From a virus: a stretch of DNA of 38,874 nt. The DNA lies in the IMG/VR virus record IMGVR_UViG_3300029381_000023; one strand, written 5' to 3'. Each line of letters opens with the position of its first letter. The first letter of the stretch is position 1. The notes beneath the pieces are model-generated. The model was not told where the DNA came from. It did no database searches and saw only the letters and a program-made list of their open reading frames with translations. Below, piece after piece: positions 1 through 38,874 of the stretch. The position numbers were made by a program, and so were the translations under genes.

Positions 1-117
1 TGCTTTCCATATAGCATATTTTGTCTATTTAAAGCCATTTGTGGTGCATTTTGAGTTTGCATAGGCATTTCCATCGGCTGAGGTCTATTCATTTGTTGTG
101 CACCATAATATTGGTTT
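1..117. repeat. Window-terminal direct repeat, copy 1 (identical to 38758-38874)
   Basis: Read directly. tgctttccatatagc...caccataatattggttt occurs at both window ends, offset 38757. This implies a circular or permuted replicon opened inside a gene. Confidence 0.95.
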
Positions 118-134
118 AAATATGGATTATACAT
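1..134 (-). CDS. N-terminal end of the wrap-around cassette gene P1 (body at 38451..38874); an upstream start at 134 adds MYNPYLNQYYGAQQ
   Basis: The reading frame stays open across the repeat. ATG at 132-134 is preceded by GAAAGGAAA about 9 nt upstream. ATG at 92 (=38849) has no SD. Full circular gene is 441 nt, 146 aa. Confidence 0.55.
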   Translation of the reverse strand, partial: MYNPYLNQYYGAQQMNRPQPMEMPMQTQNAPQMALNRQNMLYGK

Positions 135-234
135 AAATATCATTTCCTTTCAATGAAAAAGAGAAATAGCAAGCCATAATCTTTTTAAGAATTATTTTAA
201 ACTATCTCTCCTTTCATTAATTAAATTATACAGC

Positions 235-264
235 AAAAAAGAAAGCCATTTTTATTGACTTTCT
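235..264 (-). terminator. Intrinsic terminator closing the late/lysis operon
   Basis: Minus-strand RNA is AGAAAGUCA-AUAAAAA-UGGCUUUCU followed by UUUUU. The stem is 9 bp. Its single mismatch is C.A on the plus strand but G.U on the minus strand. Confidence 0.7.
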
Positions 265-273
265 ATGTGTATT

Positions 274-468
274 TTATAAAATTTTCTTAATTTTTTTCTT
301 TAATTTTTTAATCATAACATCAAGAGTAGGTTCACTAACATTAAGTTCCATCGCCATTTTTGGCCTTGTATAGCCTTTTATTTTCATTTCAAGAAGTTTA
401 CAATATTCTTCATTAAGCATACATTCATCACATATTTTTAGATATTCAGACTTTGATAATTCAAACAT
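274..468 (-). CDS. Small sigma-70 region-4-like / LuxR-type HTH protein (64 aa), candidate phage transcription regulator
   Basis: The pattern ...LLEMKIKGYTRPKMAMELNVSEPTLDVMIKKLKKKI resembles a region-4 HTH. GAAGGA SD present. It is the last gene before the terminator. Confidence 0.55.
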   Translation of the reverse strand: MFELSKSEYLKICDECMLNEEYCKLLEMKIKGYTRPKMAMELNVSEPTLDVMIKKLKKKIKKIL

Positions 469-471
469 AAT

Positions 472-552
472 CTATTTCCTTCTTTTCTTTTGTTTAGATT
501 TTCTGTATTTTCTTGTTGTTGTAGTTTTTCGATATATTCTAATTCTTCCCAT
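472..552 (-). CDS. Micro-ORF, 26 aa, extremely basic (MGRIRIYRKTTTTRKYRKSKQKKRRK)
   Basis: Hand-translated. Its ATG overlaps the stop of the upstream gene as TAATG. It fills the 469-551 gap. No other support. Confidence 0.25.
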   Translation of the reverse strand: MGRIRIYRKTTTTRKYRKSKQKKRRK

Positions 553-821
553 TAATTATTATGAATATGACTATTTTCAATATTATCAACGTCATCAATA
601 TCAATTAATTCTTCTGTAGTGGTAGTTTCAGTGCCAATATCGTTAAGAATATACACTAAATACCCAATTGTTGCAAACCACATTCCCAGAATAACTAAAA
701 TAACTATAAATTGCCTTTTATTTTGGATTTTATAATCCTTTAATAAAGACATTGCTAAACTTTCTTCTTGAATTTCTTTTACTTCTTTTCCCAATTCCAA
801 CACTTCCTCTTTCAAACCCAT
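552..821 (-). CDS. Single-pass membrane protein (89 aa), lysis-module accessory
   Basis: Central TM segment FIVILVILGMWFATIGYLVYIL and an acidic C-terminal tail. Lies downstream of the endolysin. Confidence 0.6.
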   Translation of the reverse strand: MGLKEEVLELGKEVKEIQEESLAMSLLKDYKIQNKRQFIVILVILGMWFATIGYLVYILNDIGTETTTTEELIDIDDVDNIENSHIHNN

Positions 822-823
822 TA

Positions 824-1084
824 TTATTCTCCTTTTTGATGATATTCTTTTATATGATGCTCCAAAGCAATTTCAATTCTTTCATCGATTTCTTTGTCAT
901 AATTATCTAACTTATTGTCGATTTTATCTAGTTTATCTAAAATTTGCTTAATTTGTGTGTCAATCATTCCCCATTTGTAACTATCATTTTGCGTGTCTTT
1001 ATTTGACTTGTCTTTTCTATTTAGTGCAAAACCACTAACAGAAATTACACAACTTATAATTGCAATTGCTAAAGTAATTTCCAT
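824..1084 (-). CDS. N-terminally anchored coiled-coil membrane protein (86 aa), lysis-module accessory
   Basis: TM segment ITLAIAIISCVISVSGFAL followed by heptad-like KQILDKLDKIDNKLDNYDKEIDERI. Its start overlaps the endolysin stop. Confidence 0.6.
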   Translation of the reverse strand: MEITLAIAIISCVISVSGFALNRKDKSNKDTQNDSYKWGMIDTQIKQILDKLDKIDNKLDNYDKEIDERIEIALEHHIKEYHQKGE

Positions 1085-4045: not shown

Positions 4046-5889
4046 AATTCAACTCCTTCAAAATAACTAGATAATCCACCATCAAAAGTATTTGTTATTT
4101 TCGTTATAACGACTATCTTATTTCCAAACTTTGTTTCCAAAGTTACAACAGTTCTGGGATCTATTAATGGGTTACCATTAAAATTTCCCGAAAATTTATA
4201 CTCTTTGTCGTACATTAATATGTCTCGTGCAAAATTTCTCAAATTTACATCACTAGTTTTTTGGAAATCTGTAAAGTCATAAGTTATCTCTTGACCATTT
4301 TCATCTGCATTTTCATTAATATAAGAAATAGTATTTTTATTATAGGCTACCATTTCACCAGATGTTGTTAAATTTAATGTAAATTTTTCTCCAACTGAAC
4401 CATTAAATTTTATATAGCACATTTTTGTATTGCTGTCAATCAATTCGGCAATACCACCATTGCTAGAAGTGTATGTAAACGTAGGGGTCTGGCTAATATT
4501 TTCGCTTTGGAATTTGTCATAATTAAACCAAACATATTCTTCACTATTATTTAAAATATATTTTTTTTCATCTAATAATTTAATTTGTTCACTTGTATTT
4601 TTATATTGTTCAGTAACAAAATTTATTTTTGAAATTTTTTGCCTTAATTCAACTTTAGGTTCTTCTAACATATCATTCAAAGTAATTTTCATATAACGTT
4701 CAATTGGTTGCTTAAATGCATCACCTTCCGAAAAAACATTATTTCTATTAACGAACAAAATGTGTTCACTTCCCAGTATTCCACCTTCATTATCAAAAAT
4801 ACCAGTAGAACCGGCAATTATATTATTCATTAAATTGGCACTTTTAGTATACCAAAATTTAATTGCGGTTACTAATGAAAAATTAAATTTATAAAATGCT
4901 CTAAAAGCAGTATTAAGTTCTGAGGCACTTTTAAAACTATTACTTAGAATTTTACTTGTGCTCCCGCTTTTCAATTCCAGTTTATTTAATATTGCAACCA
5001 TTGATTTACCATTTAAAGTTACATTGCCGTCTACATTCGCATTCCAATTATCTAAATAATAATACCCAAGACTTTTATATTCAGCTCCAGCATTTTCAAC
5101 AAGCACTCCACAAAAAGGTTTTATAATGCAATTTTGTGTAAGATACTTAACTAGTCCTTGAGGATTTAATGGGTCAAAATCACGATTATAATTATTAAGA
5201 TTAATTGTACAATCATTTATCGGAACAGATTGTTTTAAAATATCTATTTCTTCATTTGTAGTAAATGATATTAATTCATCATTTTCATATATATTCGAAA
5301 TACCAAAATCAATTTCAGATATCCTTATTCTTCTGTTTGGATATTCCATAGAAGAAATAGTTAGCTCCATTTTCTTAATAGTGATATCATTTTCGAAAAA
5401 TTGATGAAAAACTTTTTGCCTATTATCTTTTATATTGAATATAGTTTCTTTATCGTTTTTATCAACTATTTTTAATATAAAATCATACGCTATATTATTA
5501 AAAAAATAAATAGTTATTCCAGACGCTTTAACCGGTATTCTATTTTCTTCTGCGACGAGTGGATTGTCGACATCTAAAGTTATTTTTGTGTCTGTTATGT
5601 TTTCGAACAATTTACTACTTATATATCCAGCATTATCTCCGATAACTTTTTTATTGGGAAGAAGAAAACTACCGTCTAGTTCCGTGTAATTTTCTTCTAA
5701 ACTTGCATAGTTTTTATTTTTTCTATAACCATCATTTATTTCATAATAACCACTAAATTCGGCTTGCGTTGGAAAACTAGGGGCATAACTACTATTATCA
5801 GTATCATTATATATAATTTCAACATACCCTTTAATTTCTCTTTCCGTGTTAGTTATAGCTTTGTTAAATTCTTCATTACTTACAGCCAT
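4042..5889 (-). CDS. Tail-associated (Tal-like) minor structural / baseplate protein (615 aa)
   Basis: Size and position two genes after the tape measure. Beta-rich sequence. Confidence 0.6.
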   Translation of the reverse strand: MAVSNEEFNKAITNTEREIKGYVEIIYNDTDNSSYAPSFPTQAEFSGYYEINDGYRKNKNYASLEENYTELDGSFLLPNKKVIGDNAGYISSKLFENITDTKITLDVDNPLVAEENRIPVKASGITIYFFNNIAYDFILKIVDKNDKETIFNIKDNRQKVFHQFFENDITIKKMELTISSMEYPNRRIRISEIDFGISNIYENDELISFTTNEEIDILKQSVPINDCTINLNNYNRDFDPLNPQGLVKYLTQNCIIKPFCGVLVENAGAEYKSLGYYYLDNWNANVDGNVTLNGKSMVAILNKLELKSGSTSKILSNSFKSASELNTAFRAFYKFNFSLVTAIKFWYTKSANLMNNIIAGSTGIFDNEGGILGSEHILFVNRNNVFSEGDAFKQPIERYMKITLNDMLEEPKVELRQKISKINFVTEQYKNTSEQIKLLDEKKYILNNSEEYVWFNYDKFQSENISQTPTFTYTSSNGGIAELIDSNTKMCYIKFNGSVGEKFTLNLTTSGEMVAYNKNTISYINENADENGQEITYDFTDFQKTSDVNLRNFARDILMYDKEYKFSGNFNGNPLIDPRTVVTLETKFGNKIVVITKITNTFDGGLSSYFEGVEL

Positions 5890-6287: not shown

Positions 6288-8575
6288 CTCCTTACAATTT
6301 GTGTATTATCGTTTTGACGTTTTTGTTCGTTTCGATAATCTTGATATGTAGCTTGTGCAAACGATTTACCATTAACATTTAAAATAATAGGCCTATCAGC
6401 CAATTCCGCTATATTTCTATTTAATTCTAACAACAATTGTGTATTAGTACCGTCACCTAATTTTCCTGCCAATTGATTAGCAAAATCATCTATAAATTGG
6501 CTATTTTGTAATGGGAATATTACTTCGGCGCCTTTCTCACCTGCGACATTGCCACCACCAATATTTACACCTGGGCCTGGATTATAGACAACACCTTGCA
6601 AAGGAATGGTTGGTATTATACCACCGTCAGCAAAACCACGGCCACCGCCGCCGCCTCCACCAAAGCCACCACCAGATAAGAAATTACCAAACACTTTGGG
6701 TGCAAATTTCCATATTTTTTTCCAATAACCTAAAGTAAAAATGTTACCAATACTTTCTCCTATGCGAGTAAACGCATTATTATAATCTTTTTCCATTTTT
6801 GAAGTATCAGCCTCTGCTTTAACTTTATAAGTAGCTGTTTTATCTTCTAATTTGGTGTCATTAATTTTTTTGATAGTTTCAGAAATTTCTTCTGTTTTAC
6901 CTTTTTCAGTATCTCTTAATTGAATAATATTATAAAGTTGTTCTTCATTAATTCCTAACTCTTTACTTACCTTTTTAATTTGTTCAGCATAATTTTTAGT
7001 GCTACTTTCAATTTTATCAGTATTGATGCCTTGTTCTTCTAATATAGGTATCATTTTTCTAGCAGTGTTGTATTGATCCACCAAACCTTGTAGTACTTTT
7101 TGTTTTTGTTCCTTACTTAATTTTTCTGTTTCATATTGTTCTTTTATTTTTTCCAATATTTTATCTTGAGACAAAAGATTAAGTTGTACATCTTTAAGAT
7201 ATCGTTTGCTTAGTCCTGTTCTTTTATTTATCCATTTTTGACTTTTTTCATAAGTTTCGTTAATTGTTTTTCTTCTTCCAACTTGGTCTTTTAGTAAATC
7301 ATCAATTGATTTTTCACCACTATATATTTTGTTATAAATTTCATCAGAATTTTTTATTAATCCGTCTTGTTGAGCATTCAATTCATTCAATTCACTTTTT
7401 ATTTTGCCTATTGTTGTAATAATAGTAGTAACTCCAGCCAAAGTTAAACCAATTGTTATTGCTCTTGGAATGCCTCCCAATCCTTTAGCTCCAGTTAATA
7501 AACCAATATTCGATAATATACCACTTATTTTGCTAATACCAAACACAGTTCCGAACATAATACCCAAAGCTTTTAACCAGGTCCAATTTTCTTTTATTGC
7601 TAAGGCTAAGTTTTGTAATTTTTTCACAATTCTATCATCAAGTTCAGGAATTTCAATTAAACCACTTGTTTTATCTCCGCCAGCACTTTCTTGTAAATTA
7701 GTAACTTCGTCAATACCAGTCGCTAATTGTTTTTGTGCGTCTGCTTGCTTTTTTAAAGACTTTGCATTTGCTCTAGCTATATAATCGACCCCAGTTAATG
7801 CTTTTATAAATACATTAAGATATCCCAAGGCTTTTAACAAAGCATTGCTTATTCCTTCTAGTGCTGGTGCTAAAAAAGTACCTAAACCAACCCAAACACT
7901 TTGTAATTTTTGTGCCAATTCAGTATCTTGTGAAAGATAAGCTGAACTTGCTTTACTAACTAAAGCGTACACTGTCTGAATGCCAAATAATGATAATCCG
8001 ACTTTTTTTATTTTGTTAATTAATTTATCAAAGCTTTTATTAGTTTTTTCAACTTGTGGTTCAATGTCAGTGATGCCTTTAACATAAAGTTTTGACCCAG
8101 TTATTTTTTCGTACTCTTTGGCAATATCTTTTATTTTGTTTTTTAACTTTTCTGAATATTCTACATCTTTTTCATCAAATATTTTAGCTTCGCTTATAGT
8201 TTTTTGCATTTCTTCATATTCAGAAAAAGTCTTATATAATTCGTTAGACAATTTTTTTATTTGTTCTTCTTCTTTGCTAATTTCCGTGTTTGTTTCTTGT
8301 TGTTTTTCTACAACTTGTTGTTGTTGTTTTATAGCTTCTTGTTTTTGCCGATTAATATTTTCTTGTTCTTCTCTTAATTCTTTAATTTTTTCAACAGTCT
8401 TATTATATGTTTCTAAGTCTGTTTCTGCTGGATTATCCATAGTAGCAATTTTATTTGCTTTTTTGTCTAATTCATCTATTTTTTTACTTATTTCATCATA
8501 ATCTTTATCAAATTGTTTCGTATCTATTTGAGTTCCAATAACAACTTTTCCATTATAATTATTCATCGCTTTCAC
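6284..8575 (-). CDS. Tape measure protein (763 aa)
   Basis: Long coiled-coil N- and C-terminal regions, central hydrophobic/Gly-rich segments, GGGFGGGGGGGRGFADGG tract. Canonical position after the chaperones. Confidence 0.85.
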   Translation of the reverse strand: MKAMNNYNGKVVIGTQIDTKQFDKDYDEISKKIDELDKKANKIATMDNPAETDLETYNKTVEKIKELREEQENINRQKQEAIKQQQQVVEKQQETNTEISKEEEQIKKLSNELYKTFSEYEEMQKTISEAKIFDEKDVEYSEKLKNKIKDIAKEYEKITGSKLYVKGITDIEPQVEKTNKSFDKLINKIKKVGLSLFGIQTVYALVSKASSAYLSQDTELAQKLQSVWVGLGTFLAPALEGISNALLKALGYLNVFIKALTGVDYIARANAKSLKKQADAQKQLATGIDEVTNLQESAGGDKTSGLIEIPELDDRIVKKLQNLALAIKENWTWLKALGIMFGTVFGISKISGILSNIGLLTGAKGLGGIPRAITIGLTLAGVTTIITTIGKIKSELNELNAQQDGLIKNSDEIYNKIYSGEKSIDDLLKDQVGRRKTINETYEKSQKWINKRTGLSKRYLKDVQLNLLSQDKILEKIKEQYETEKLSKEQKQKVLQGLVDQYNTARKMIPILEEQGINTDKIESSTKNYAEQIKKVSKELGINEEQLYNIIQLRDTEKGKTEEISETIKKINDTKLEDKTATYKVKAEADTSKMEKDYNNAFTRIGESIGNIFTLGYWKKIWKFAPKVFGNFLSGGGFGGGGGGGRGFADGGIIPTIPLQGVVYNPGPGVNIGGGNVAGEKGAEVIFPLQNSQFIDDFANQLAGKLGDGTNTQLLLELNRNIAELADRPIILNVNGKSFAQATYQDYRNEQKRQNDNTQIVRS

Positions 8576-23384: not shown

Positions 23385-23919
23385 GTATCTTTTGCCCTGT
23401 TTCGGATTTAGAACAGAATTTAAAAGACATATCATAATCTTCTTTGTTATCTTCAATGGTATGTAATGCCTTTCTAAGTTGTTCAGGGCTTTGTGGGGGT
23501 CTATATGTTTGTAAACCTTTTTCTTTTGCTTGTCTATAAAGTTCCCACTCATTGTATTCTGCATGATAATTTAATCCTAATTTCCATTTTAAAGTTCGCT
23601 TGTATTGTTCTAATCTTGGGTTTTTCCATTTTGTAATGTCGTCAATGCAAGTAATGTCTTTGCTATGCTCTATAAGTATTATTAAATGTATTCCAGCCTT
23701 TTTGGATCTGATAAGCTCATCTTTAAATCTCTTTTGCGTAACATTTTGCATAATCTCAGCAAGATTTTGTTTTCTGTCAATAACAATTTTAGGGTTATCT
23801 AAAGATTGGTAATCTCCAACATAAAGTTTTGAAGTGTCATAATCAATATTGTTTTCTTCAAAGCATTTAATTATTTTTGTTATTGCCTTTGGTTTTTCTC
23901 GACTATCTATTAAAATCAT
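23368..23919 (-). CDS. ERCC4/Mus81-type structure-specific nuclease (183 aa)
   Basis: ILIDSREK, YVGDY, VIDRKQNLAE (ERK-like motif). Confidence 0.8.
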   Translation of the reverse strand: MILIDSREKPKAITKIIKCFEENNIDYDTSKLYVGDYQSLDNPKIVIDRKQNLAEIMQNVTQKRFKDELIRSKKAGIHLIILIEHSKDITCIDDITKWKNPRLEQYKRTLKWKLGLNYHAEYNEWELYRQAKEKGLQTYRPPQSPEQLRKALHTIEDNKEDYDMSFKFCSKSETGQKILELLS

Positions 23920-24596
23920 TTAATCAACTCCTTTTCATCGATTATGTATTGCCTAATAAATCTATTAGCATATTGTGGATGTATCATACTTCTATTAACT
24001 GTGTTTTCATCATTAATCTTTTTTCTTTTAACTAATTCTAATGGTTCAAATATAAAATTATTTTTTGGGTCACAATTTATAAACCAATATTGTGTAGGCT
24101 TTTTATAATAATCTCCTTCTAAACTTCTATCCATATCAATTATTTTTGGTTCAATGCACCAATAACGATGTAAGTAATGTTGTGTTGAGTAAGGATTTTC
24201 TATTATTAGTGAAATATTTTTATCAACACATATTATTGCCAATTTGGTTATTAATTGATAATTTCTATTTAATTCTTCACTTAATTTAAGGCAATTACTT
24301 AATTTTTTTTTCATATTCCAATCTTTATATCCACTATTGACACCTTTAAAATTCATAATTACTTGTGCCTCAAATCTAACACATGGAAAGAATGCTAATA
24401 TAGTATCTTGTTTATTCATTTTGTCAAAAATACTATTTAATCCTAAATATCCTTTTTCTATTTCATCAAATAAATCTATAACATAATCAGTTTCGTTAAA
24501 ATCATTTAGAATGTCATAATCGTATGCTTTATACCCTAATTTTTTAAATTCATTTTTAAATGTTCCACTTTGTTCAAAAAAACAATGATATTTCAT
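23916..24596 (-). CDS. Minimal C5-cytosine-methyltransferase-like protein (226 aa) with a degenerate SAM motif
   Basis: FFEQSGTF (motif I-like), FFPCVRF (PCQ-like with Cys), IIENPYS (ENV-like). No obvious target-recognition domain. Confidence 0.5.
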   Translation of the reverse strand: MKYHCFFEQSGTFKNEFKKLGYKAYDYDILNDFNETDYVIDLFDEIEKGYLGLNSIFDKMNKQDTILAFFPCVRFEAQVIMNFKGVNSGYKDWNMKKKLSNCLKLSEELNRNYQLITKLAIICVDKNISLIIENPYSTQHYLHRYWCIEPKIIDMDRSLEGDYYKKPTQYWFINCDPKNNFIFEPLELVKRKKINDENTVNRSMIHPQYANRFIRQYIIDEKELIK

Positions 24597-24608: not shown

Positions 24609-25337
24609 TTACATTGTAAATAATGTTTGTTGCCCATTTGCTTGAACATTATTTAATCTATCAACTGCTATTTTGTGCCATTTTGAATTTAATTCTATTC
24701 CTATGTATCTTCGGTTAGTGTTTTTGCAAGCAACACAAGTTGTCCCACTTCCGCAAAAGCAATCCAATACAATATCATTTTCTTGTGTTGTGTGTTTTAT
24801 ATGTCTTTCCACTAAATTTAAAGGTTTTATAGTTGGGTGTTTAAATTTTTCTTTATCACTTTGATTTATAGGGTTTATATACCATTTGCTTTTTAATTCA
24901 TAACCATCATTCAATTTGACGCCTTTTTCTCTAAAGTATAAACAATATTCAATATCTGGTAAAAAAGTATTATTTGTCATAGGTGTTGGATTTGTTTTAT
25001 TCCATGTTAATATTTCAAACATACAATTATTTTGCTTAAAAAAATTTAAAATATCTAATATTTGTTCTTTGCTACACCAAATGAAACAATTTATTTTTTT
25101 AGATATTCTTATAAATTCATTTAAAATTGAATAATTTATTCCTTTTGTTATTTCTTTTAAATCTTCTTGTTTTAATTTTTTTATTCTTTGTGATAATGGG
25201 CTAGTACTACTACCACCATCAGCAAACAAATACGGTATATCTGTATAAATGCAATCTATACTCTTGTCAGGAATACTTTTTATAACTTCATAACAATCGC
25301 CTAAAATTACATTGTTAATCATATCTTCAAATTTCAT
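24609..25337 (-). CDS. DNA methyltransferase, N6A/N4C beta-class (N6_N4_Mtase)
   Basis: IYTDIPYLF (DPPY-type motif IV) upstream of LDCFCGSGTTCVAC (motif I). Confidence 0.9.
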   Translation of the reverse strand: MKFEDMINNVILGDCYEVIKSIPDKSIDCIYTDIPYLFADGGSSTSPLSQRIKKLKQEDLKEITKGINYSILNEFIRISKKINCFIWCSKEQILDILNFFKQNNCMFEILTWNKTNPTPMTNNTFLPDIEYCLYFREKGVKLNDGYELKSKWYINPINQSDKEKFKHPTIKPLNLVERHIKHTTQENDIVLDCFCGSGTTCVACKNTNRRYIGIELNSKWHKIAVDRLNNVQANGQQTLFTM

Positions 25338-26053: not shown

Positions 26054-26866
26054 TCAGTCCTTTCTAACTACATTGTTTATTCTTTCTTTTGCTATATTAA
26101 AATAATTTTCATCAAGTTCTATTCCTATAAAATTTCTATTTGTATTCACACAGGCAACACCCGTACTTCCAGATCCCATACAATTGTCAAGTACAGTATC
26201 CCCCTCGTTTGTATACGTTTTGATTAGATACTCAAGAAGCACAACTGGTTTCTGAGTGGGATGTAAATTAGTGTTTATTTCTTTGTTTATTTTTAAAACA
26301 CTTTTTGGGTATCTATAACCATCATCAGCATTTCTTATTCTTATTATTTCGTTACCAATGTGTTCTTTATTTGTTTTAGGATTATTTATTGTTTTTCTTC
26401 TATCAACCTTGCCAAATCTATCATAATCTCTTGTTTCGAAAACTTGTTTTAATTCTTTATCATTCATTTGCTTGATTTCTTCAAATTCTAATACCTTATA
26501 TTTTTGTGGATAATAATTATGTGTTTCTTTACTAAATACACATATATTTTCATGATATTTTAATGGTTGATATTTTGCACTCATAAAATTACTTGCTTTT
26601 TGTTTTTCCCATATCCACTCATATTTAAAATTTTTAATATTACTCATAATTAAACTACTTGTAAATGGTTGACTTCCAAATAAAACAATAGCACCATTAT
26701 CTTTAATAATTCTATTATATTGCTCCCACAATTTATCAAAAGGTATAACTATATCCCATTTACAAGCAGTAGTTCCATAGGGCAAATCACATAATATCAT
26801 GTCTATTGATTTATCAGGTATATTTTTCATTACTTGTAAACAATCGCCTTGTCTTAAATCTATCAT
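26054..26866 (-). CDS. DNA methyltransferase, N6A/N4C beta-class (N6_N4_Mtase)
   Basis: ILCDLPYGT (motif IV) and LDNCMGSGSTGVAC (motif I). Confidence 0.9.
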   Translation of the reverse strand: MIDLRQGDCLQVMKNIPDKSIDMILCDLPYGTTACKWDIVIPFDKLWEQYNRIIKDNGAIVLFGSQPFTSSLIMSNIKNFKYEWIWEKQKASNFMSAKYQPLKYHENICVFSKETHNYYPQKYKVLEFEEIKQMNDKELKQVFETRDYDRFGKVDRRKTINNPKTNKEHIGNEIIRIRNADDGYRYPKSVLKINKEINTNLHPTQKPVVLLEYLIKTYTNEGDTVLDNCMGSGSTGVACVNTNRNFIGIELDENYFNIAKERINNVVRKD

Positions 26867-31548: not shown

Positions 31549-32139
31549 TTAGAACGGAAGCATATCGTTAGTAACTTCAATTTCATCACTTGAATTGCTA
31601 TTTCCGTTGCTTTTTATATAATCTTCATATTCGGTATAAGATCCATCAAGCATTTTTACTTGAGTAGGTTCTTTAATATCTTTCATTTTATCAAGGCTTC
31701 TAAATTTATTTAATTTAGCACTTATTCCGATTTTTCCATCTTGCGTTTGGTATTGTTCCCATTGATATACACAACATATTTTTTTGCCACGAAGTTTTGT
31801 TTCATCCCAATCCCAAGTATAACCTGGATTTGAATTTTCAATGCTTGTTATAAATCCCTTTAGATAACTTAAATTTTGTTCTTCAAGTGATAAATATTTT
31901 GTAGAATTGTTATTCCAGCGTCTATCTACATTAGTGTTTTTATCATACATTTCTTTGAAATAACCTTTGTATTCTCCACTTGCAATATCAACCATTACTT
32001 TTAAAGTGGTTTTTCCACTATCTTTGTTAAAATTTTCGCAAGCATTTATTATAACACATTCATAAACTCCTGCTGGAAATGGTGTAAAATCATCCATTCC
32101 CTTTGCTTCAATTTCGCTCCAATTTTCAATTTTTTTCAT
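31549..32139 (-). CDS. ssDNA-binding-type protein (DUF669-like) with an SSB-style acidic C-terminal tip
   Basis: Ends ...SSDEIEVTNDMLPF (compare the bacterial SSB tip DDDIPF). Neighbours a Sak4-like recombinase gene. Confidence 0.6.
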   Translation of the reverse strand: MKKIENWSEIEAKGMDDFTPFPAGVYECVIINACENFNKDSGKTTLKVMVDIASGEYKGYFKEMYDKNTNVDRRWNNNSTKYLSLEEQNLSYLKGFITSIENSNPGYTWDWDETKLRGKKICCVYQWEQYQTQDGKIGISAKLNKFRSLDKMKDIKEPTQVKMLDGSYTEYEDYIKSNGNSNSSDEIEVTNDMLPF

Positions 32140-32816
32140 TATTTTCCTTCCTCAACTTTCTTTCCTTCTTTATAATATTGCCAGCTATAACCGCCAGCTC
32201 TTTTAGTATTGCCTAAGCAACATCTACTTATGTTTTTTATTCCTGTTAGCGTTTCTGCTTCAACTATTGAATTATATATTTTATTTTCTTCTACACACAA
32301 AACTTTTTTTCTTTTGGGAGATTTTTTCCCCTTTTTGGCAATGCTCATTTTTTGACATGAAATTTTATCCATTTTTTTGCCTTTGTTCCATGGCTTTTTT
32401 CCAAACATAGGATTTTTTTCTCCTAAATTTTTATTTCTCAATATTTCTTTTATTTCATTACTTACTTTATGAGTTTTGCCAGTAGAAGCATTTCTCAGTT
32501 TTTCTTTAGTTAAATTGCTAACACTATTTGCATATCCTCCATTTGCAATATTATAACCATAATTGGGATTATTGCTTTTCAAAAAGGATATTAAGCTTTG
32601 TTCTTTATTTTCTGCTTCCTCTTTAGTTAAATTGGTTAATACTATAATATGTTTTATATTATTCCAACCATATTTTTCTATTGCTCTATTAAATAAAATA
32701 CAGCCTTTGTAATTTTTGCCGTTCCCCCATCTTCTTTCTGGAATATTTTTAGTTATTCCAACATAATTTTTATCATTAGGGCAAACGTGAACATAAAGAG
32801 TATAGCCTTTTTCCAA
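32139..32816 (-). CDS. GIY-YIG homing endonuclease with NUMOD3-type repeats and a C-terminal DNA-binding domain
   Basis: YTLYVHVCPNDKNYVGITKNIPERRW (GIY..YIG), KEEAENKEQ...YNIANGG, repeated HKVSNEIKE/GKKPWNKGKK modules. TTG start 6 nt after AGGAGGTG. Confidence 0.9.
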   Translation of the reverse strand: MEKGYTLYVHVCPNDKNYVGITKNIPERRWGNGKNYKGCILFNRAIEKYGWNNIKHIIVLTNLTKEEAENKEQSLISFLKSNNPNYGYNIANGGYANSVSNLTKEKLRNASTGKTHKVSNEIKEILRNKNLGEKNPMFGKKPWNKGKKMDKISCQKMSIAKKGKKSPKRKKVLCVEENKIYNSIVEAETLTGIKNISRCCLGNTKRAGGYSWQYYKEGKKVEEGK

Positions 32817-35520: not shown

Positions 35521-35542
35521 AAAAAACAGACTTTTTAGTCTG
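35520..35542 (-). terminator. Intrinsic terminator
   Basis: Minus-strand RNA is CAGACU-AAAA-AGUCUG followed by UUUUUUU. Confidence 0.55.
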
Positions 35543-35625
35543 CCTAAAAACCCAAAAGATAAAAATGAAAAAAGCATTGCCTTTGAAAGGGGGCTGGGTT
35601 TTTAATGCTAGGGTGAAATCTAGCT
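35520..35625 (-). ncRNA. Candidate ~100-nt phage sRNA bounded by its own promoter and terminator
   Basis: Lies between promoter 35632-35660 and terminator 35520-35542. Internal pairings: AAAAACCCA/UGGGUUUUU, AGCAUU/AAUGCU, GCUAG/CUAGC. The only ORF lacks an SD. Confidence 0.4.
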
Positions 35626-35661: not shown

Positions 35662-35736
35662 TGGACAAGGTGGTGGGATTTGAACCCACGTATACATTAT
35701 TTGCAGTAATGCTCCTAGCCACTTGGATACACCTTG
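35662..35736 (-). tRNA. tRNA-Cys: tRNA-Cys (anticodon GCA), CCA-encoded
   Basis: Folded by hand: acceptor CAAGGUG/CACCUUG, D arm UCCA-AGUGGCU-AGGA, anticodon arm CAUUA-CUGCAAA-UAAUG, variable loop UAUAC, T arm GUGGG-UUCAAAU-CCCAC, discriminator U73, 3' CCA. Confidence 0.9.
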
Positions 35737-35757: not shown

Positions 35758-36114
35758 TTATTTAACAATCCAGCAATACTCGGCTTGTCTTTCGCGACAA
35801 TCGAAACTATCATAAATAACACCATATTTAGAACAAACAATATGCCCAGTCATTGTTATAAGAATAACATTGTCGTTGTATTTTGCTGATACTTCTCCGA
35901 CCGATAAATTATATGTGGGTACTCTTTCATATCGTTCGTCTAAAAAATCAAGTATAAAATCTCTATCGTCTAACATAGTTCCTTTTAACCTTGCTTTGTT
36001 GCTTAAATATTGGTATGTATCATCCCAACTATTGCCTGTTGCAAGGCTTATTGACCTTATTACACAATCGTTCTCGAATAAGCCTAAAGCATTGTTATTA
36101 TAAAATTTATACAT
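35758..36114 (-). CDS. Cassette protein P7 (118 aa): candidate papain/transglutaminase-fold Cys-His-Asp enzyme
   Basis: ENDCVIRSISLATG (Cys17), MTGHIVC (His91), VIYDSFD (Asp). TAATG junction with P6. The fold assignment is a guess from spacing. Confidence 0.6.
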   Translation of the reverse strand: MYKFYNNNALGLFENDCVIRSISLATGNSWDDTYQYLSNKARLKGTMLDDRDFILDFLDERYERVPTYNLSVGEVSAKYNDNVILITMTGHIVCSKYGVIYDSFDCRERQAEYCWIVK

Positions 36115-36650
36115 TACATTTCACTTATCTTACGTGCAGTTTTTCTAACCTTTTCGATTTTATCTTGGCTATCGGCTTCTTGCATTATTAAATAAGTAAA
36201 ATCTTCAAGGCTTTGTAACATTTTATCAAAAGATTTTTCTGTTTCTCTATCATTTCCATAAGTATCTCTACCCTCAGAATAATCACCGTAGTGTTCGCCC
36301 ATTTCTTCAATCATGTCATATCCGCGATAGCGACCTCTTCCAGTTCCAGGTACACCTCTTCTTCCGTATGAACCATCCATATATCTTCCACGGCTATCTC
36401 TTGAACGGCCACCATTATAACTATCGTCCATAAAATAATCTCTTCCTCTATACATACTTTCTTCCTCCTTTTCTTTCCAGTATTTTTCATTTTCAATATC
36501 TTTATGAATATCTATTAATTTGTATAAAAGTTCTACATTTGCAGTTTGCAAACCATTTTCGGTTATTTGTTTTATTATTCTTTCAACTTCAGATTTTGTT
36601 TTTATTAAAACATCTTCTTTAGTTTCTTCAATTTTGTTCTCTTCTTCCAT
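36114..36650 (-). CDS. Cassette protein P6 (178 aa): helical ends flanking an Arg/Gly/Tyr/Asp-rich disordered core
   Basis: YRGRDYFMDDSYNGGRSRDSRGRYMDGSYGRRGVPGTGRGRYRGYD. Strong GGAAGGAGG SD. Confidence 0.7.
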   Translation of the reverse strand: MEEENKIEETKEDVLIKTKSEVERIIKQITENGLQTANVELLYKLIDIHKDIENEKYWKEKEEESMYRGRDYFMDDSYNGGRSRDSRGRYMDGSYGRRGVPGTGRGRYRGYDMIEEMGEHYGDYSEGRDTYGNDRETEKSFDKMLQSLEDFTYLIMQEADSQDKIEKVRKTARKISEM

Positions 36651-36831
36651 CTGAAATGCCTCCTTCCTTTAATAATCGTATTATCTCCTCATATTGCTTA
36701 TCTTGTTTATTTAAATGATTTTCTAATTTTTCAATTTGTTTGTCATTCAAGTTTAAGTTTTCAACGCCAATAATAAAAGATAATATATTTATTAAATTGA
36801 ATAAATACTCATTATTGTTTTCAGTATTCAT
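36628..36831 (-). CDS. Cassette protein P5 (67 aa): hydrophobic N-terminal segment plus a charged helix
   Basis: LFNLINILSFIIGV then KQIEKLENHLNKQDKQYEEIIRLLKE. TAATG junction with P4 and a 23-nt overlap with P6. Confidence 0.6.
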   Translation of the reverse strand: MNTENNNEYLFNLINILSFIIGVENLNLNDKQIEKLENHLNKQDKQYEEIIRLLKEGGISDGRREQN

Positions 36832-37289
36832 TATGATCTTTTGCTAATTCTAAAGTTAGCATTTTGATATAAAGGTATTTGTGTAGCAGTTGGTGTTCCG
36901 GTTGCAGTTGTACCAGTTAAAACACTAGGTACTGATTGTACTGTTAAAGTGGCTTCACCTCTGCAACAAATTGGCACTGTTTTAGTAAATGCAACATTTA
37001 CATAATCACCAGCAGTTGCTATATCAGCGATAACAGTTGTTCCTGGCAATAGAACTCCGTCCATATATAAACCTAAAGCAACTTGTCCAGCGGTTGCACT
37101 TGTTACATTTGCGTTAAAAGTAACATCATAGTTTCCACCATTTAAAATCTTATAAAGTGGTGAACCTTGTGAATGTTGAAGAAAACCATAGCAATTAGCA
37201 CATCTTGTTCTTATACAATCCATAGAAAATGTTAAAGGGCTAGAATTTGAAGCAAGTAAAACTGGTGTTTCTTGATAACTTTGTATCAT
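36831..37289 (-). CDS. Cassette protein P4 (152 aa): C1q/TNF-like jelly-roll resembling the BclA C-terminal domain; 5 Cys
   Basis: YKILNGGNYDVTFNANVTSATAGQVALGLYMDGVLLPGTTVIADIATAGDYVNVAFTKTV...EATLTVQSV strand pattern. Thr-rich TGTTATGTPTATQ. Confidence 0.7.
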   Translation of the reverse strand: MIQSYQETPVLLASNSSPLTFSMDCIRTRCANCYGFLQHSQGSPLYKILNGGNYDVTFNANVTSATAGQVALGLYMDGVLLPGTTVIADIATAGDYVNVAFTKTVPICCRGEATLTVQSVPSVLTGTTATGTPTATQIPLYQNANFRISKRS

Positions 37290-37316
37290 AATATCATTCC
37301 TTTCTTATAAATTATT

Positions 37317-37345
37317 TAAAAAAGAGATAGGGCTTTCCTATCTCT
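37317..37345 (-). terminator. Strong intrinsic terminator in the middle of the cassette (between P3 and P4)
   Basis: agagatagg-gcttt-cctatctct, a 9-bp stem, followed on the minus strand by UUUUUU. Confidence 0.8.
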
Positions 37346-37390
37346 AAAAATAGTAAGCACTTGTAATCAAGTTCCTGTAATCAGGTCTTA

Positions 37391-38155
37391 CTAAAAATTT
37401 CCACATCCGCATCCGCTTGTTACTTGATAATTATAGCAGCAATTAGGGTTTGGCACTATGTAACTAGGGGATGGGCAAGGTTTTAATTCACTTAATAAAT
37501 AAGCATTTTGTGCTGATTGACTAGCAGACAATCTTAATGCGTTAATTTCATTTTGTTGAGCAGTAATTTGAGCATTTTTGTCCTCAATTCTATTAGCGAC
37601 TATTTCATCATGTAAAGCACGATAGTTAGCATTGACAGTATCAACTATATCTCTAGTATTCATATTCATTGTGTTTTGTAAAGCACAAGTATTAGTTGCT
37701 AGATTGTAGTTAACCCCTTGAATATCGCTTCTTAAATTACAACAACAACTTGCTAAATCACTTGATAAGTTATTAATAGCATTTCTAGTTTCATAACCAT
37801 TTGCCATAATTGAATTATTAACGCCAGCAAAACCATTTAATAGGCTTGTATTCATAGCATAGAAACCATCACATATTCCATTTTGAATATATCTTGATTG
37901 TGCTGTTAAATCATTGAAACCATCGCTTAGTTGTCTTTGAATTGTGGCAAAATCAGAAGCAAGTACATAATTATCGGTAGCACCTGAACCATTACCACCA
38001 CCAAAGCCATTACCATTTCTACCCCAGCCCATAAAGGCAAAGATTAAAAAAATAATAACCCACCAACTACCATTATCTCCAAAACCATCATTGTTTCCAT
38101 TTCTTCCAGATAATAGAGCAACATCAGAAGCAGTTAATCCACTTTCTCCTCTCAT
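37391..38155 (-). CDS. Cassette protein P3 (254 aa): Gly/Asn-rich, one TM, Asn-rich helical region with a CCC motif, coiled coil, Cys-rich C-terminus
   Basis: WWVIIFLIFAFMGWG TM flanked by GNNDGFGDNG and GNGFGGGNGSG. Also SCCCN, NAQITAQQNEINALRL, and the C-terminus KPCPSPSYIVPNPNCCYNYQVTSGCGCGNF. 10 Cys in total. Confidence 0.75.
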   Translation of the reverse strand: MRGESGLTASDVALLSGRNGNNDGFGDNGSWWVIIFLIFAFMGWGRNGNGFGGGNGSGATDNYVLASDFATIQRQLSDGFNDLTAQSRYIQNGICDGFYAMNTSLLNGFAGVNNSIMANGYETRNAINNLSSDLASCCCNLRSDIQGVNYNLATNTCALQNTMNMNTRDIVDTVNANYRALHDEIVANRIEDKNAQITAQQNEINALRLSASQSAQNAYLLSELKPCPSPSYIVPNPNCCYNYQVTSGCGCGNF

Positions 38156-38222
38156 ATAAATTCTCCTTTCTTTATATTTAAAATACTTGGGAATTGCAAA
38201 ATTATATTAAAAACCAAATATT

Positions 38223-38447
38223 TTATTTAAACATTTCTTTGAAATTATTAAATTCTTGGTCAAAATCTTTTCCTTGACTTTTCATATAATTTCTAGCAAA
38301 ATTTTCAACACCTTTTGTGTCGCCTTTGTTTGCCATATCAATTAAATTTTTAAATATGGGATTGTTATTTTGAGATAGCATTTTCATTGCCATATCTTTT
38401 GGATTACCAATTCCCATCATGCCTTTTATCATATTTAAAGGGTTCAT
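38223..38447 (-). CDS. Cassette protein P2 (74 aa): Met/Asn-rich helical protein
   Basis: MNPLNMIKGMMGIGNPKDMAMKMLSQNNNP... GGAGGA SD. 3-nt gap to P1. Confidence 0.65.
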   Translation of the reverse strand: MNPLNMIKGMMGIGNPKDMAMKMLSQNNNPIFKNLIDMANKGDTKGVENFARNYMKSQGKDFDQEFNNFKEMFK

Positions 38448-38450
38448 AAA

Positions 38451-38874
38451 TTAATCCTCCTTTTTAGTTTTTAATTTGTTTTTAATATCTTTTAACTCTT
38501 TTTTTAAATCTTCTAAATCGTCTTTTAAATCATCAATTTCACTAAAATCTAATTTTTCAAGTCTTTTGTCTATATCTTCAATGGTTGCAAATTTCATGTC
38601 TTCTTTTTGCATTTTAGGTTCATAAATAGTTATTTTGCTTGTTCCGTCTTGTTGTAACTGTTTTGTTACTATTGCACTACCATTAGCAAGTGGGAAGTAG
38701 CTTACAGAACCATCTAATGGTATATCAATAGCTTTTACTACTTCTAAACTATCAACTTGCTTTCCATATAGCATATTTTGTCTATTTAAAGCCATTTGTG
38801 GTGCATTTTGAGTTTGCATAGGCATTTCCATCGGCTGAGGTCTATTCATTTGTTGTGCACCATAATATTGGTTT
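38451..38874 (-). CDS. Cassette protein P1 (body; the N-terminus continues at 118-134 on the circle, 146 aa in total): Q/M/P/N/Y-rich N-terminus, small beta domain, charged coiled coil
   Basis: (MYNPYLNQYYGAQQ)MNRPQPMEMPMQTQNAPQM..., then VDSLEVVKAIDIPLDGSVSYFPLANGSAIVTKQLQQDGTSKITIYEP, then DDLKDDLEDLKKELKDIKNKLK. Confidence 0.7.
   Translation of the reverse strand, partial: NQYYGAQQMNRPQPMEMPMQTQNAPQMALNRQNMLYGKQVDSLEVVKAIDIPLDGSVSYFPLANGSAIVTKQLQQDGTSKITIYEPKMQKEDMKFATIEDIDKRLEKLDFSEIDDLKDDLEDLKKELKDIKNKLKTKKED
38758..38874. repeat. Window-terminal direct repeat, copy 2 (identical to 1-117)
   Basis: Same 117 nt as bases 1-117. Confidence 0.95.

Follow-up and report, generated by a model that had tools for sequence, protein, structure and literature searches.

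What does a coherent unit of seven genes with no known function do for the phage that carries it? The question is raised by IMG/VR virus record IMGVR_UViG_3300029381_000023, a stretch of 38,874 nucleotides that was analyzed whole (the window). The initial annotation had described seven open reading frames (P1 to P7), all of which are present in the ORF list on the minus strand (Table 1). Its reading of their arrangement also holds: P4/P5 and P6/P7 share TAATG junctions, P5 and P6 overlap by 23 nt, and a tRNA-Cys is located 21 nt after P7. The window edge cuts P1, however, as the first 117 bases are identical to the last 117. This terminal repeat is an assembly overlap, and the genome is circular, with a length of 38,757 bp. 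Full-length P1 starts at position 134, has 146 aa, and is 100% identical to P0232 (146 aa). The same gene order is found elsewhere, and the cassette is one copy of a widespread, undescribed gut-phage module.

Table 1. Positions of the module's genes and of the signals predicted around them, in window coordinates
Feature	Position	Strand	Basis or remark
Intrinsic terminator of late structure-lysis operon	240..264	-	9-bp stem and T run; 1 site versus 0.2 expected
TATAAT box, candidate -10 of module's promoter	225..230	-	9 nt after terminator stem
Conserved 5′ leader hairpin	150..220	-	SD-like 5′ arm GAAAGGAG... predicted to pair with CUCUUUUUC
P1, 5′ end	1..134	-	True start codon 134-132; bases 1-117 duplicated at 38758-38874
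P1, in-window ORF	38849-38451	-	ORF list; remainder of gene 38451..38874
P2	38447-38223	-	74-aa Met-rich helical protein, conserved NP motifs
P3	38155-37391	-	Hallmark fibrous protein
Intrinsic terminator/attenuator between P3 and P4	37323..37345	-	Terminator scan
P4	37289-36831	-	Free-standing BclA-C/C1q/TNF-type jelly-roll protein, conserved CC motif
P5	36831-36628	-	Clade-specific small protein, 67 aa
P6	36650-36114	-	Two conserved helical ends with R/G/Y/D-rich disordered linker between
P7	36114-35758	-	Small papain-like Cys17-His91-Asp102 protein
tRNA-Cys (GCA)	35736-35662	-	U73, encoded CCA end; conserved but hypervariable slot of module
Terminator-like hairpin after tRNA-Cys, end of unit	35524..35545	-	Terminator scan

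Recurrence of the cassette order in other phage genomes, a check that the initial annotation had proposed, was found in about 160 loci (two sets of 80) picked by P3 only. Nearly all of them have P1-P2-P3-P4-P6, mostly together with P7, in collinear order on a single strand. Such repetition across so many independent loci puts the arrangement far beyond chance. P2/P3 are immediately preceded by a P1 family member in 76/80 and 74/80 loci, and P6 is found in 50/80 and 67/80. The type A layout is P1-P2-P3-P4-(P5)-P6-P7-tRNA-Cys; in such modules P2 is always between P1 and P3, and P5 is present in just 6 and 7 loci of the two sets, those of the window clade plus a few relatives. The full, identical seven-gene set occurs in another backbone (L004/L005), and the module is found in unrelated phage backbones. 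The module or its hallmark P3 was seen in Butyrivibrio fibrisolvens phage Ceridwen, Bacteroides uniformis phage C3_41T2LP, six crAss-like genomes, a Methanomassiliicoccales virus, and a prophage region of a 557-kb Prevotella scaffold. Carriers also include C. perfringens phages (CPD1, XP41-N3, and HMD-PC1, which, like Ceridwen and C3_41T2LP, are cultured) and span 38-kb phages, contigs of 100 to 160 kb, and crAss-like phages.

The module is sited inside the late structure-lysis block or at its far end. In the window, it is co-oriented with the late genes and directly follows the holin/endolysin genes. Lysis or tail genes lie upstream of it in many lineages; for a large share, recognizable lysins or holins are within 4.5 kb on that side. 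In Dulem virus 35, it has the gene for an SPP1-gp7-like head protein on one side and the scaffold/major capsid genes on the other, and 4 of 39 lineages have it next to Phage_min_cap2. The P3 homologue of crAss-like genomes is found among structural genes, between or beside a holin and an L,D-carboxypeptidase/transpeptidase lysin, or beside a LysB/FtsL-like gene.

Both terminators predicted earlier, one closing the late operon and one following P3, are present. With the hairpin after the tRNA, the unit has terminators before, within, and after it, along with a conserved candidate −10 box and a leader hairpin, so that it may be a moron, an accessory unit with its own promoter and terminator inside or beside a late operon. 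A (T/G)ATAAT box lies in the same place in 6 of the 10 aligned sequences (the window, L006, L007, L008, L084, and L087), and the sequence upstream of it differs among those six; in the window, this box is a candidate −10 element of the module promoter. The scan also called a promoter at 153-126, which was discarded as it overlaps the P1 start codon. The leader hairpin has a predicted stability of −23.7 kcal/mol (z = −3.6), which none of 200 shuffles reached, and its CUCUUUUUC arm lies a short way upstream of the true ribosome-binding site of P1. Equivalent hairpins with compensatory changes occur in L006, L084, L087, and L088 (z = −2.9 to −3.7); in L004 the hairpin forms, but no better than in shuffles (z = −1.1).

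The hallmark of the module, P3, is an undescribed fibrous protein. Its family comprises 1,705 clusters at 50% identity, with homologues of 140 to 330 aa that have conserved ends and no fusions, and others have annotated some of them as “viral fiber” or “spike.” The CCC motif is invariant (residues 137 to 139 in the window), the C terminus carries a GCGC tail (GCGCG in the window), and the N/Q-rich stalk varies in its number of heptad-like inserts. The window protein also has the motifs SQxAQ and P-x-P-S-Y. Near the N terminus is a Gly-flanked hydrophobic core of 14 aa (residues 31 to 44), which had been taken for a transmembrane segment. That assignment was not sustained: the core has only 11 to 15 residues (median, 13), hydropathy over 19 residues is 1.35, and the Gly-rich flanks contain 0.64 and 0.33 K+R per 15 residues. 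Judged by these properties, the core is not a canonical membrane anchor.

The suggestion that P4 resembles BclA-C and C1q was upheld at the profile level. PF18573 (BclA_C) is matched by 11 of 28 P4 relatives (best E = 9.6e-9), and two also match C1q; window P4 itself scores 21.2 bits (E = 2.8e-4), under the Pfam cutoff of 38 bits. The best solved match of the family profile is 9H38 (E = 1.5e-4), the F-BclA C-terminal domain from the endospore appendage tip of B. thuringiensis, with weaker hits to BclA (E = 0.26 to 0.85). These profile comparisons place the P4 family with the BclA-C/C1q/TNF-type jelly-roll folds. Like the C-terminal domains of BclA and F-BclA (PF18573; 1WCK and 9H38), P4 has about 140 aa and is all-beta. 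Those domains form TNF/C1q-like trimers that tip exosporium hairs and endospore appendages, and by analogy P4 would be expected to be a trimeric knob ending a fibrous stalk. Unlike BclA, P4 forms a polypeptide of its own, lacks both a collagen stalk (GXY repeats were found in neither P4 nor P3) and an exosporium-targeting N terminus, is phage encoded, including in phages of non-sporulating hosts, and carries a conserved CC motif.

P7 had been proposed to be a papain- or transglutaminase-fold enzyme. The papain-type Cys-His-Asp triad and fold stood, whereas no resemblance to transglutaminase, or to sortase, was found. Across sets of 14 and 65 sequences, residues D16, C17, H91, and D102 never vary. 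The AF2 model (pLDDT, 95.4; pTM, 0.88) shows a papain-like fold in which C17 opens helix 17-26, H91 opens strand 91-96, and D102 closes strand 99-102. The protein shares with clan CA peptidases (C39 leader peptidases and Josephin/UfSP-type deconjugases) the Cys at a helix N terminus, the preceding Asp, the His and Asp on neighboring strands, and a size of about 120 aa; the spacing of Cys17, His91, and Asp102 resembles that of the ComA C39 domain. Unlike known clan CA peptidases, P7 has no significant match in Pfam or NCBIfam (including C39, NlpC/P60, CHAP, and Tgl) or, by sequence profile, in the PDB (best E = 0.17, spurious). A Foldseek search of the PDB with the model yielded no solved relative (best E = 0.3; TM ≤ 0.45), and deubiquitinase-type papain folds predominate among the weak neighbors (Josephin-2 [TM, 0.45], UfSP, a tegument DUB, and PLpro). 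P7 falls into a very large family of its own that is restricted to phages, and its fold is common in unrelated phages.

The link between module and tRNA-Cys is real and conserved, as the tRNA follows P7 at the module's 3′ end in 26 of 47 P7-ending modules, in low-GC phages. In the window it scores 57 bits in Rfam and is the sole tRNA of the phage. Its identity is always Cys, while its sequence has been repeatedly replaced, even between near-identical phages; both P7 alleles and tRNA sequences have been swapped between modules that are otherwise 95% identical. As with other phage-encoded tRNAs, the gene looks functional, with U73 and CCA, but unlike them it goes with a single protein module and not with a tRNA cluster. 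The description of the cassette as Cys rich does not hold for the whole (1.93% Cys versus 1.59% in the rest of the phage) and survives for P3 (3.9%), P4 (3.3%), and P7 (3.4%), the only enriched proteins.

Among the remaining proteins, the domains assigned to P1 hold: a disordered Y/P/Q/M-rich N terminus, a small three-stranded beta unit, and C-terminal helices. P2 is Met rich, as noted earlier (10 of 74 residues), and P6 has no match in Pfam or the PDB. In all lineages, P1 (Tyr/Pro/Gln-rich) and P6 (Arg/Gly/Tyr-rich) have low-complexity regions of complementary composition. By hydropathy and reading of the translations, P1, P2, P4, P6, and P7 lack a strongly hydrophobic N terminus of the signal-peptide or lipoprotein type.

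The module probably builds a stalk-and-knob protein fiber. Our preferred reading, to which we assign a probability of only about 0.38, is that it is a late, high-copy accessory fiber, probably on the virion. P3 would form a trimeric fiber whose N/Q-rich stalk differs in length between phages, and a P4 trimer would form the knob on its Pro/Cys-rich C terminus. The attachment or insertion end would be the short hydrophobic N terminus of P3 with its Gly flanks, which the Met-rich helical P2 may hold soluble; the half-disordered P1 and P6 could be adaptors or assembly partners, and P7 may trim or mature a component. The 5′ hairpin and the post-P3 terminator would delimit a P1-P3 message, and such a message, with a dedicated tRNA-Cys, is consistent with, though no proof of, high output of Cys-motif proteins. 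Assembly would most likely take place late in infection and in the cytoplasm; a cytoplasmic site is suggested by the partner proteins, in which hydropathy and inspection revealed no strongly hydrophobic N terminus.

The synteny, the fibrous character of P3, the putative P4 knob, the late/structural context, and the features consistent with high output all argue for such a fiber. Viruses use stalk-and-knob attachment fibers, as in PRD1 P5, the Sf6 tail needle with its TNF-like knob, the adenovirus fiber, and T4 fibritin. The module may share their architecture of a trimeric stalk, a jelly-roll head, and a stalk length that varies between relatives; however, it matches none of them in sequence or structure, splits stalk and knob into two genes, and adds the Gly-flanked hydrophobic N terminus, invariant Cys motifs, a protease, a tRNA, and three obligate partners. 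Several observations weigh against the fiber reading. The cassette proteins matched no solved phage-particle protein and no structurally labeled PHROG. In the window, a lysis cassette and terminator separate the module from the virion genes, and this separation, with the module's own start signals, makes it look more like a moron. Virion fibers do not usually have a Gly-flanked hydrophobic N terminus or a pair of half-disordered partners, and the virion types that the module serves differ widely, which is awkward for a part that docks to a specific capsid or tail.

The main rival, which we consider unlikely, is a membrane-active accessory to exit or lysis: the Gly-rich hydrophobic N terminus of P3 would insert into the cytoplasmic membrane, and P3, with its coiled-coil stalk, would perturb or fuse membranes at the end of infection as spanins and class I fusion proteins do, while the remaining proteins assemble P3 or keep it inactive. 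Its closeness to lysis genes in the window, in many lineages, and in crAss-like genomes fits this role, but for a module at the end of the late operon such adjacency is partly automatic. The P3 profile gives dozens of weak influenza HA2 matches that begin at the fusion peptide (E = 0.07 to 0.8), and the flanks of the hydrophobic core are uncharged, as in fusion peptides; however, none of the HA2 matches is significant (best E = 0.068; most 0.1 to 0.8). P3 resembles HA2 and the spanins Rz/Rz1 in having a Gly-rich hydrophobic N-terminal peptide followed by a long coiled coil, a Cys/Pro-rich C-terminal end, and, in several lineages, holin/endolysin neighbors. Unlike them, it has no second membrane anchor and occurs equally in phages of monoderm hosts (C. 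perfringens and Butyrivibrio), where there is no outer membrane to fuse. The core is too short for a standard anchor, and P3 lacks the N-terminal transmembrane helix of the inner-membrane subunit of two-component spanins. By inspection, no lipobox-type N terminus was found among the neighboring ORF translations, and no spanin lipoprotein partner was seen among the module ORFs or the crAss-like and Bacteroides-phage neighbors. The TNF-like knob, the variable-length stalk, and the dedicated tRNA are likewise foreign to known lysis systems. A role directed at the membrane or envelope, in a broader sense, is possible.

The initial annotation had favored a host surface layer, either spore coat/exosporium-like or an exclusion barrier, cross-linked through Cys, Tyr, and P7. 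The endospore-appendage relative of P4, the invariant Cys motifs of P3 and P4, the triad of P7, and the moron-like start and stop signals are in keeping with such a layer, which we nevertheless regard as improbable. The spore-coat version is not supported by the hosts: carriers of the module or P3 include phages of non-sporulating and diderm bacteria and an archaeal virus, and a spore-specific role is unlikely because Bacteroides and crAss-like phages have P3 homologues as well. An extracellular layer formed before lysis is hard to envisage because P1, P2, P4, P6, and P7 show no export-type N terminus by hydropathy and inspection. In addition, the scan of window ORFs turned up no lysogeny gene, P7 matches no cross-linking transglutaminase or sortase, and the PADLOC anti-phage defense models gave only coiled-coil noise (E ≥ 0.007).

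Just as improbable, in our view, is a self-assembling material independent of the virion, in which P1 and P6 would condense with P3 and P4 into a matrix or aggregate, either in the cell or released at lysis to embed or clump the progeny. The complementary low-complexity regions, the regulatory features that fit high output, and the portability of the module across unrelated virion types would suit such a material, but tailed phages offer no precedent, composition alone is weak evidence, and the folded parts (jelly roll, coiled coil, and protease) suggest a defined complex. Least probable is a counterdefense island, in which P7 would be a DUB-type deconjugating protease acting against a host ubiquitin-like defense and the tRNA-Cys would substitute for a host tRNA cut by a defense nuclease: replacement of this kind would explain the rapid tRNA turnover, and the allele swapping, the deubiquitinase-type neighbors, and the wide spread of the P7 fold agree with it, but no structural match of P7 is significant, we know of no tRNA-Cys-specific nuclease, and the always-attached five-gene structural core is left unexplained.

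Under the preferred reading of an accessory fiber, the structure would leave the cell on the virion, as a head, neck, or side fiber serving reversible adhesion. The module itself is self-contained and accessory, and it has moved as a unit between the backbones of gut tailed phages.

The window is a tailed-phage genome of low GC content (~28%) in which every ORF accepted as a gene lies on the minus strand. The same 117 nt stand at both ends of the window, at 1-117 and, as an exact direct repeat, at 38758-38874, so the contig represents a circular genome of 38,757 bp, with the repeat as an assembly overlap. ORF translation placed the seven cassette genes, P1 to P7, exactly where the initial annotation had put them, and the TAATG junctions at P4/P5 and P6/P7, the 23-nt overlap of P5 with P6, the terminator between P3 and P4, and the tRNA-Cys(GCA) 21 nt downstream of P7 were all present as described. 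The extent of P1 had to be revised, as the assembly overlap cuts its 5′ end; the true start lies at 134 and gives a protein of 146 aa, identical at full length to a protein on 38.9-kb metagenome contigs. A terminator separates the cassette from the late operon of tail-fiber gene, holin, endolysin, and three small ORFs (see the table). Among the latter, the ORFs at 552-821 and 824-1084 each contain a strongly hydrophobic segment, and that at 274-468 has a weak HNH-endonuclease-like match; the three may be extra holin- or antiholin-type genes. Past the tRNA-Cys, small early genes are followed by recombination, replication, and methylase genes. The window ORFs scanned included neither an integrase nor a repressor. 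The replication block contains a homing-endonuclease-like gene (listed region 32139-32816), and three genes for DNA methyltransferases are clustered (26054-26866, 24609-25337, and 23916-24596).

A TATAAT box is located 9 nt past the stem of the late terminator and is kept in 6 of 10 aligned sequences despite differing upstream sequence. Another promoter, called by the scan at 153-126, was rejected, as it overlaps the true P1 start. A long hairpin forms in the P1 leader (-23.7 kcal/mol; z, -3.6); its SD-like GAAAGGAG pairs with CUCUUUUUC, a pyrimidine run, directly before the real ribosome-binding site. The hairpin recurs with compensatory changes in four of five relatives (z, -2.9 to -3.7), while the leader of the fifth, the different-backbone locus L004, folds no better than shuffled sequences; these are single-sequence folds, used because the divergent leaders align poorly and RNAalifold found no consensus. 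The hairpin matches no Rfam family and may be an mRNA stabilizer or a translational control element. The leader is followed by P1 to P3, a terminator, the translationally coupled P4 to P7, the tRNA, and a second terminator, a layout consistent with an abundant P1-P3 message and a lower output of P4-P7.

Coordinates of features in the window and in homologous loci (L-numbers) of other phage genomes and contigs
Feature	Locus and position	Strand	Remark
Holin	window 2177-1887	minus	late operon end, after tail-fiber gene
Endolysin	window 1884-1084	minus	late operon end, after holin
Three small ORFs	window 274-1084	minus	after endolysin, before late terminator
Late-operon terminator	window 264-240	minus	closes tail-fiber/holin/endolysin/small-ORF operon
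P1 leader hairpin	window 150-220	minus	
Leader hairpin in relatives	L006 ~5176-5235; L084 ~526-600; L087 ~7006-7090; L088 ~6458-6514		
tRNA-Cys slot after P7	window 35662-35736; L004 12510-12586; L008 8407-8481; 24 further loci		
P3-adjoining protein trio	L164 6547-7718; L165 4847-7622; L082 5626-6959		crAss-like/Bacteroides phages
AgrB-like protein	L004 12920-14167	minus	
AgrB-like protein	L005 9798-11024; several other loci		in the other loci, ORFs within ~4.5 kb of module

The cassette is a conserved, mobile module. In the metagenome protein collection, its hallmark fibrous protein, P3, has more than 7,700 relatives; the 120 best-ranked share at least 87% identity and lie on contigs of ~38 to 40 kb, so the window phage is common. 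The identical seven genes also occur in a different backbone (L004 and L005) that has another tail; there, an M23 lysin precedes the module and convergent replication genes follow it. For synteny, loci were fetched by P3 alone (71 from IMG/VR and 80 from genomes or MAGs), and their ORFs were searched with iterated P1-P7 profiles; the first set held 80 loci, including GenBank and contig loci, and the second set held 80. Across these P3-chosen loci, the module genes were always on one strand and in two orders only. Type A, P1-P2-P3-P4-(P5)-P6-P7, is that of low-GC phages, including the window; type B, P7-P1-x-P3-P4-P6, is that of phages with 37 to 61% GC. P1 was detected in 76/80 and 74/80 loci (first and second sets) and P6 in 50/80 and 67/80, counts open to low-complexity drift of the profiles, over which the constant positions of the matches argue for true homology. 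The corresponding counts were 54/80 and 56/80 for P2, 58/80 and 57/80 for P4, 27/80 and 56/80 for P7, and 6/80 and 7/80 for P5. Together with the two gene orders, these counts define a core of five genes, with P7 as a regular sixth member and P5 as a clade-specific extra.

At 50% identity, the P3 family comprises 1,705 clusters with an E value of ≤1e-3 (775 with ≤1e-10), all of them stand-alone proteins of ~140 to 330 aa. Cultured carriers are six C. perfringens phages, Butyrivibrio phage Ceridwen, and Bacteroides uniformis phage C3_41T2LP (profile E value, 1.5e-42). P3 was also found in a Methanomassiliicoccales virus and in six crAss-like genomes, whose records label it "spike protein/glycoprotein." Full modules lie on contigs binned with Bacilli, "Mollicutes," Clostridia, Gastranaerophilales, Alloprevotella, Prevotella (a 557-kb scaffold), Paludibacteraceae, Anaerovibrio, and Collinsella, host labels that are uncertain in that binning can be wrong.

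Upstream of the module, lysis families are frequent (Amidase_2/3, M23, CHAP, M15, NlpC/P60, ELLD, holin families, and XhlA) and tail proteins are also common, with an SPP1-gp7-like head protein in a minority of loci; downstream, convergent replication or nucleotide-metabolism genes are frequent. In Dulem virus 35, the module stands between a gp7-like gene and the scaffold and major capsid genes, and in crAss-like genomes, P3 is found within or next to the holin-lysin cluster and adjoins head or tail genes. The module therefore belongs to the block of late genes and usually stands last in it. Beside P3, crAss-like and Bacteroides phages encode a beta-rich protein carrying K-C-C or K-C-G-C, a protein that combines a beta domain and a coiled coil, and a small R/Y/D/E-rich protein; by eye, our impression is that these resemble P4, P1, and P6 in kind, without detectable homology, and hhalign of P1, P4, and P6 against the genes adjoining P3 in crAss cr1_1 found none. 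AgrB-like (PF04647) proteins, unexpected in phages, recur near the module (5 of the 136 ORFs lying upstream in one set, 2 + 1 in the other set; best E value, 3.9e-9). Matches to sigma-70 region 4 occur among the four ORFs upstream of the module in ~6 of 46 nonredundant loci, mostly on contigs of 70 to 160 kb; the candidate carriers are ORFs of ~220 to 230 aa in several IMG/VR loci (e.g., L033, L034, L040, L066, and L068). A crAss gene adjoining P3 is also annotated as sigma factor-like.

In the family alignment, P3 begins with a short conserved segment, G-L/Y-S/T-x-x-D-I/V-A-A, followed by N-x-D-G-F-G-G. The hydrophobic core of 11 to 15 residues is capped by Trp (window version, WWVIIFLIFAFMGW) and flanked on each side by 5 to 8 Gly per 15 residues, with Lys and Arg nearly absent. 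An N/Q-rich helical region follows, read as a stalk from sequence and hydropathy, and its length varies by extra heptad-like units. Also conserved are a nearly invariant CCC, T-C, S-Q-x-A-Q-N-A, P-x-P-A/S-Y, and a C-terminal G-C-G-C. P3 has no relatives in Pfam, NCBIfam, or PDB; the only matches of its profile are many subthreshold ones to influenza HA2 that start at the fusion peptide (E values, 0.07 to 0.8) and that probably explain the crAss "spike" annotation. In crAss cr52_1 (L081, 4545-5468), the standard code splits the P3 homologue by an in-frame stop into 4545-5216 and 5304-5468; in the record it is a single CDS, as would be expected if this phage recodes a stop codon in its late genes.

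Only two parts of the module can be assigned to known fold families, the P4 jelly roll and the papain-like P7, and neither falls confidently in a curated family. The proposed C1q/BclA-like nature of P4 was supported at the profile level, where its family groups with the BclA-C/C1q/TNF jelly rolls; the window protein itself scores under the Pfam threshold for BclA_C. The best solved match of the P4 profile is PDB 9H38, a domain from the tip of the F-type endospore appendage in B. thuringiensis (PMC12357932). For P7, suggested to be a papain/transglutaminase-fold enzyme, the Cys-His-Asp papain-like arrangement stood: in the predicted model (pLDDT 95.4), Cys17 is placed at the start of a helix, with His91 and Asp102 on neighboring strands, and all three are invariant in family alignments. 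A solved neighbor was not found, as no match of the model to solved structures was significant (best E value, 0.3), and deconjugase-type papain folds predominate in the weak match list. The P7 family has at least ~8,000 clusters at 90% identity, and unrelated phages encode many uncharacterized look-alikes. Two P7 alleles, ~46% identical, are exchanged between otherwise ~95%-identical modules (loci compared: window 35758-36114, L006/L007/L009 8024-8383, L008, and L086); a C-P-D-C motif, almost invariant across the wider family, is missing from the window allele.

P1 has a disordered Y/P/Q/M-rich N terminus, a three-stranded beta unit, and C-terminal helices, and its model (pLDDT 64) had no fold match in Foldseek (best E value, 0.27). 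P2 is helical and Met-rich (10/74), with conserved NP motifs; its PDB profile matches were to de novo designed helical proteins and were not significant. P6 consists of two conserved helical ends and an R/G/Y/D-rich linker of variable length. By hydropathy and reading of the N termini, none of P1, P2, P4, P6, and P7 has an exported-type N terminus. Nucleotide searches of the cassette region against GenBank phages gave no match, and Pfam, NCBIfam, and PADLOC with all seven proteins gave only a weak BclA_C match. PHROGs returned families of unknown function only, PDB sequence profile searches with P1, P2, P3, P6, and P7 returned nothing significant, and the literature on the module, carrier-phage proteomics, and crAss lysis genes yielded no functional data. 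In the libraries and papers searched, we found no description of P1, P2, P3, P5, P6, the leader hairpin, the module gene order, or the module-linked tRNA-Cys.

Across 143 loci with enough downstream sequence, we found 52 tRNAs, 29 of them tRNA-Cys; 27 of these 29 were located 11 to 274 nt 3′ of the module on the same strand. The tRNA-Cys follows 26 of 47 modules ending in P7, all 26 being type A modules of phages with 26 to 36% GC. The module tRNA-Cys sequences are nearly unrelated (41 to 71% identity), even where the flanking proteins are 95 to 99% identical: between the window and L008, P3, P6, and P7 share 95%, 96%, and 97% identity and the tRNA 53%, and tRNA identity is independent of that of the three proteins. 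The GCA anticodon, U73, and the encoded CCA are kept in all of them, so the slot has been refilled again and again, always by a tRNA-Cys, and selection is for a tRNA-Cys at this position and not for one particular sequence. The window tRNA-Cys has an unusual first pair, C1-G72. A simple need of a Cys-rich cassette was rejected as stated (Cys, 1.93% versus 1.59% in the rest of the phage), and Cys content fails to explain the tRNA, as P3 and P4 Cys counts are equal in modules with and without it. An attP remnant is a weakened candidate, since the window ORFs scanned include no integrase and integrase is not among the common flanking families. P3 in the window has a TGT-TGT-TGT run and a GCGCG tail, and the tRNA-Cys might simply be explained by very high P3 expression in hosts that we assume to have few tRNA-Cys genes.

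For the function of the module, all of which we infer, the best single reading is that it builds a particle-associated accessory fiber, to which we give a tentative probability of roughly 0.38. The folded parts would make a stalk-and-knob fiber from P3, fibrous and of variable length with conserved ends, and a TNF/C1q-type domain; such domains form trimeric heads in BclA hairs and viral attachment fibers, and P4 would be a domain of that kind. Association with the particle is favored because the module is co-oriented with the late genes and placed among head genes in some lineages and because its features fit high output and partners that are apparently not exported. Against a particle-associated fiber stand the absence of a match to any solved particle protein, the odd, hydrophobic, glycine-flanked N terminus of P3, the module's apparently separate transcription unit after the lysis genes, and its portability across very different virions.

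The main rival, which we consider unlikely, is a membrane-active accessory to exit: the P3 N terminus is fusion-peptide-like and crAss-like phages carry the gene in a lysis neighborhood, but the same module serves monoderm hosts, and neither knob nor tRNA has a role in that model. More doubtful still is a categorically different membrane machine, in which P3 and P4 would jointly correspond to a class I viral spike but be encoded by two genes. The receptor-binding head would be the P4 jelly roll, and P3 would supply the glycine-rich fusion-peptide-like end and the coiled-coil stalk; P2 would keep P3 soluble, P7 would prime it, and the dedicated, constantly replaced tRNA-Cys would be needed for spike production. 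Tailed phages of monoderm and diderm gut bacteria would thereby insert into or fuse membranes, at exit or entry. To our knowledge, no membrane-active machine of this kind is known in Caudoviricetes. The spore-coat, surface-layer, or exclusion-barrier function proposed in the initial annotation is improbable and survives mostly as a generic action on the envelope; a spore-specific role is ruled out by the host range of the isolates, MAG labels aside, the cultured carriers including phages of non-sporulating and diderm hosts (Butyrivibrio and Bacteroides). A virion-independent matrix is just as improbable, and a counter-defense island is very improbable.

The cassette is one of the more widespread uncharacterized gene sets of gut phages; its carriers include phages of Bacillota and Bacteroidota as well as crAss-like phages, and its proteins are all unnamed. 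An accessory adhesion fiber, if that is what it builds, would be relevant to host finding by gut phages or to their persistence in mucus. An action on membranes could instead make it a missing step of phage exit, also in Bacteroides phages, whose genes for disrupting the outer membrane are poorly defined. The tRNA-Cys, whose identity is kept while its sequence is replaced, is a rare example of a tRNA gene linked to a single protein module, and through it the question of why phages carry lone tRNAs can be approached directly by experiment. As cultured carriers exist, the fiber, membrane, and tRNA questions are all testable.
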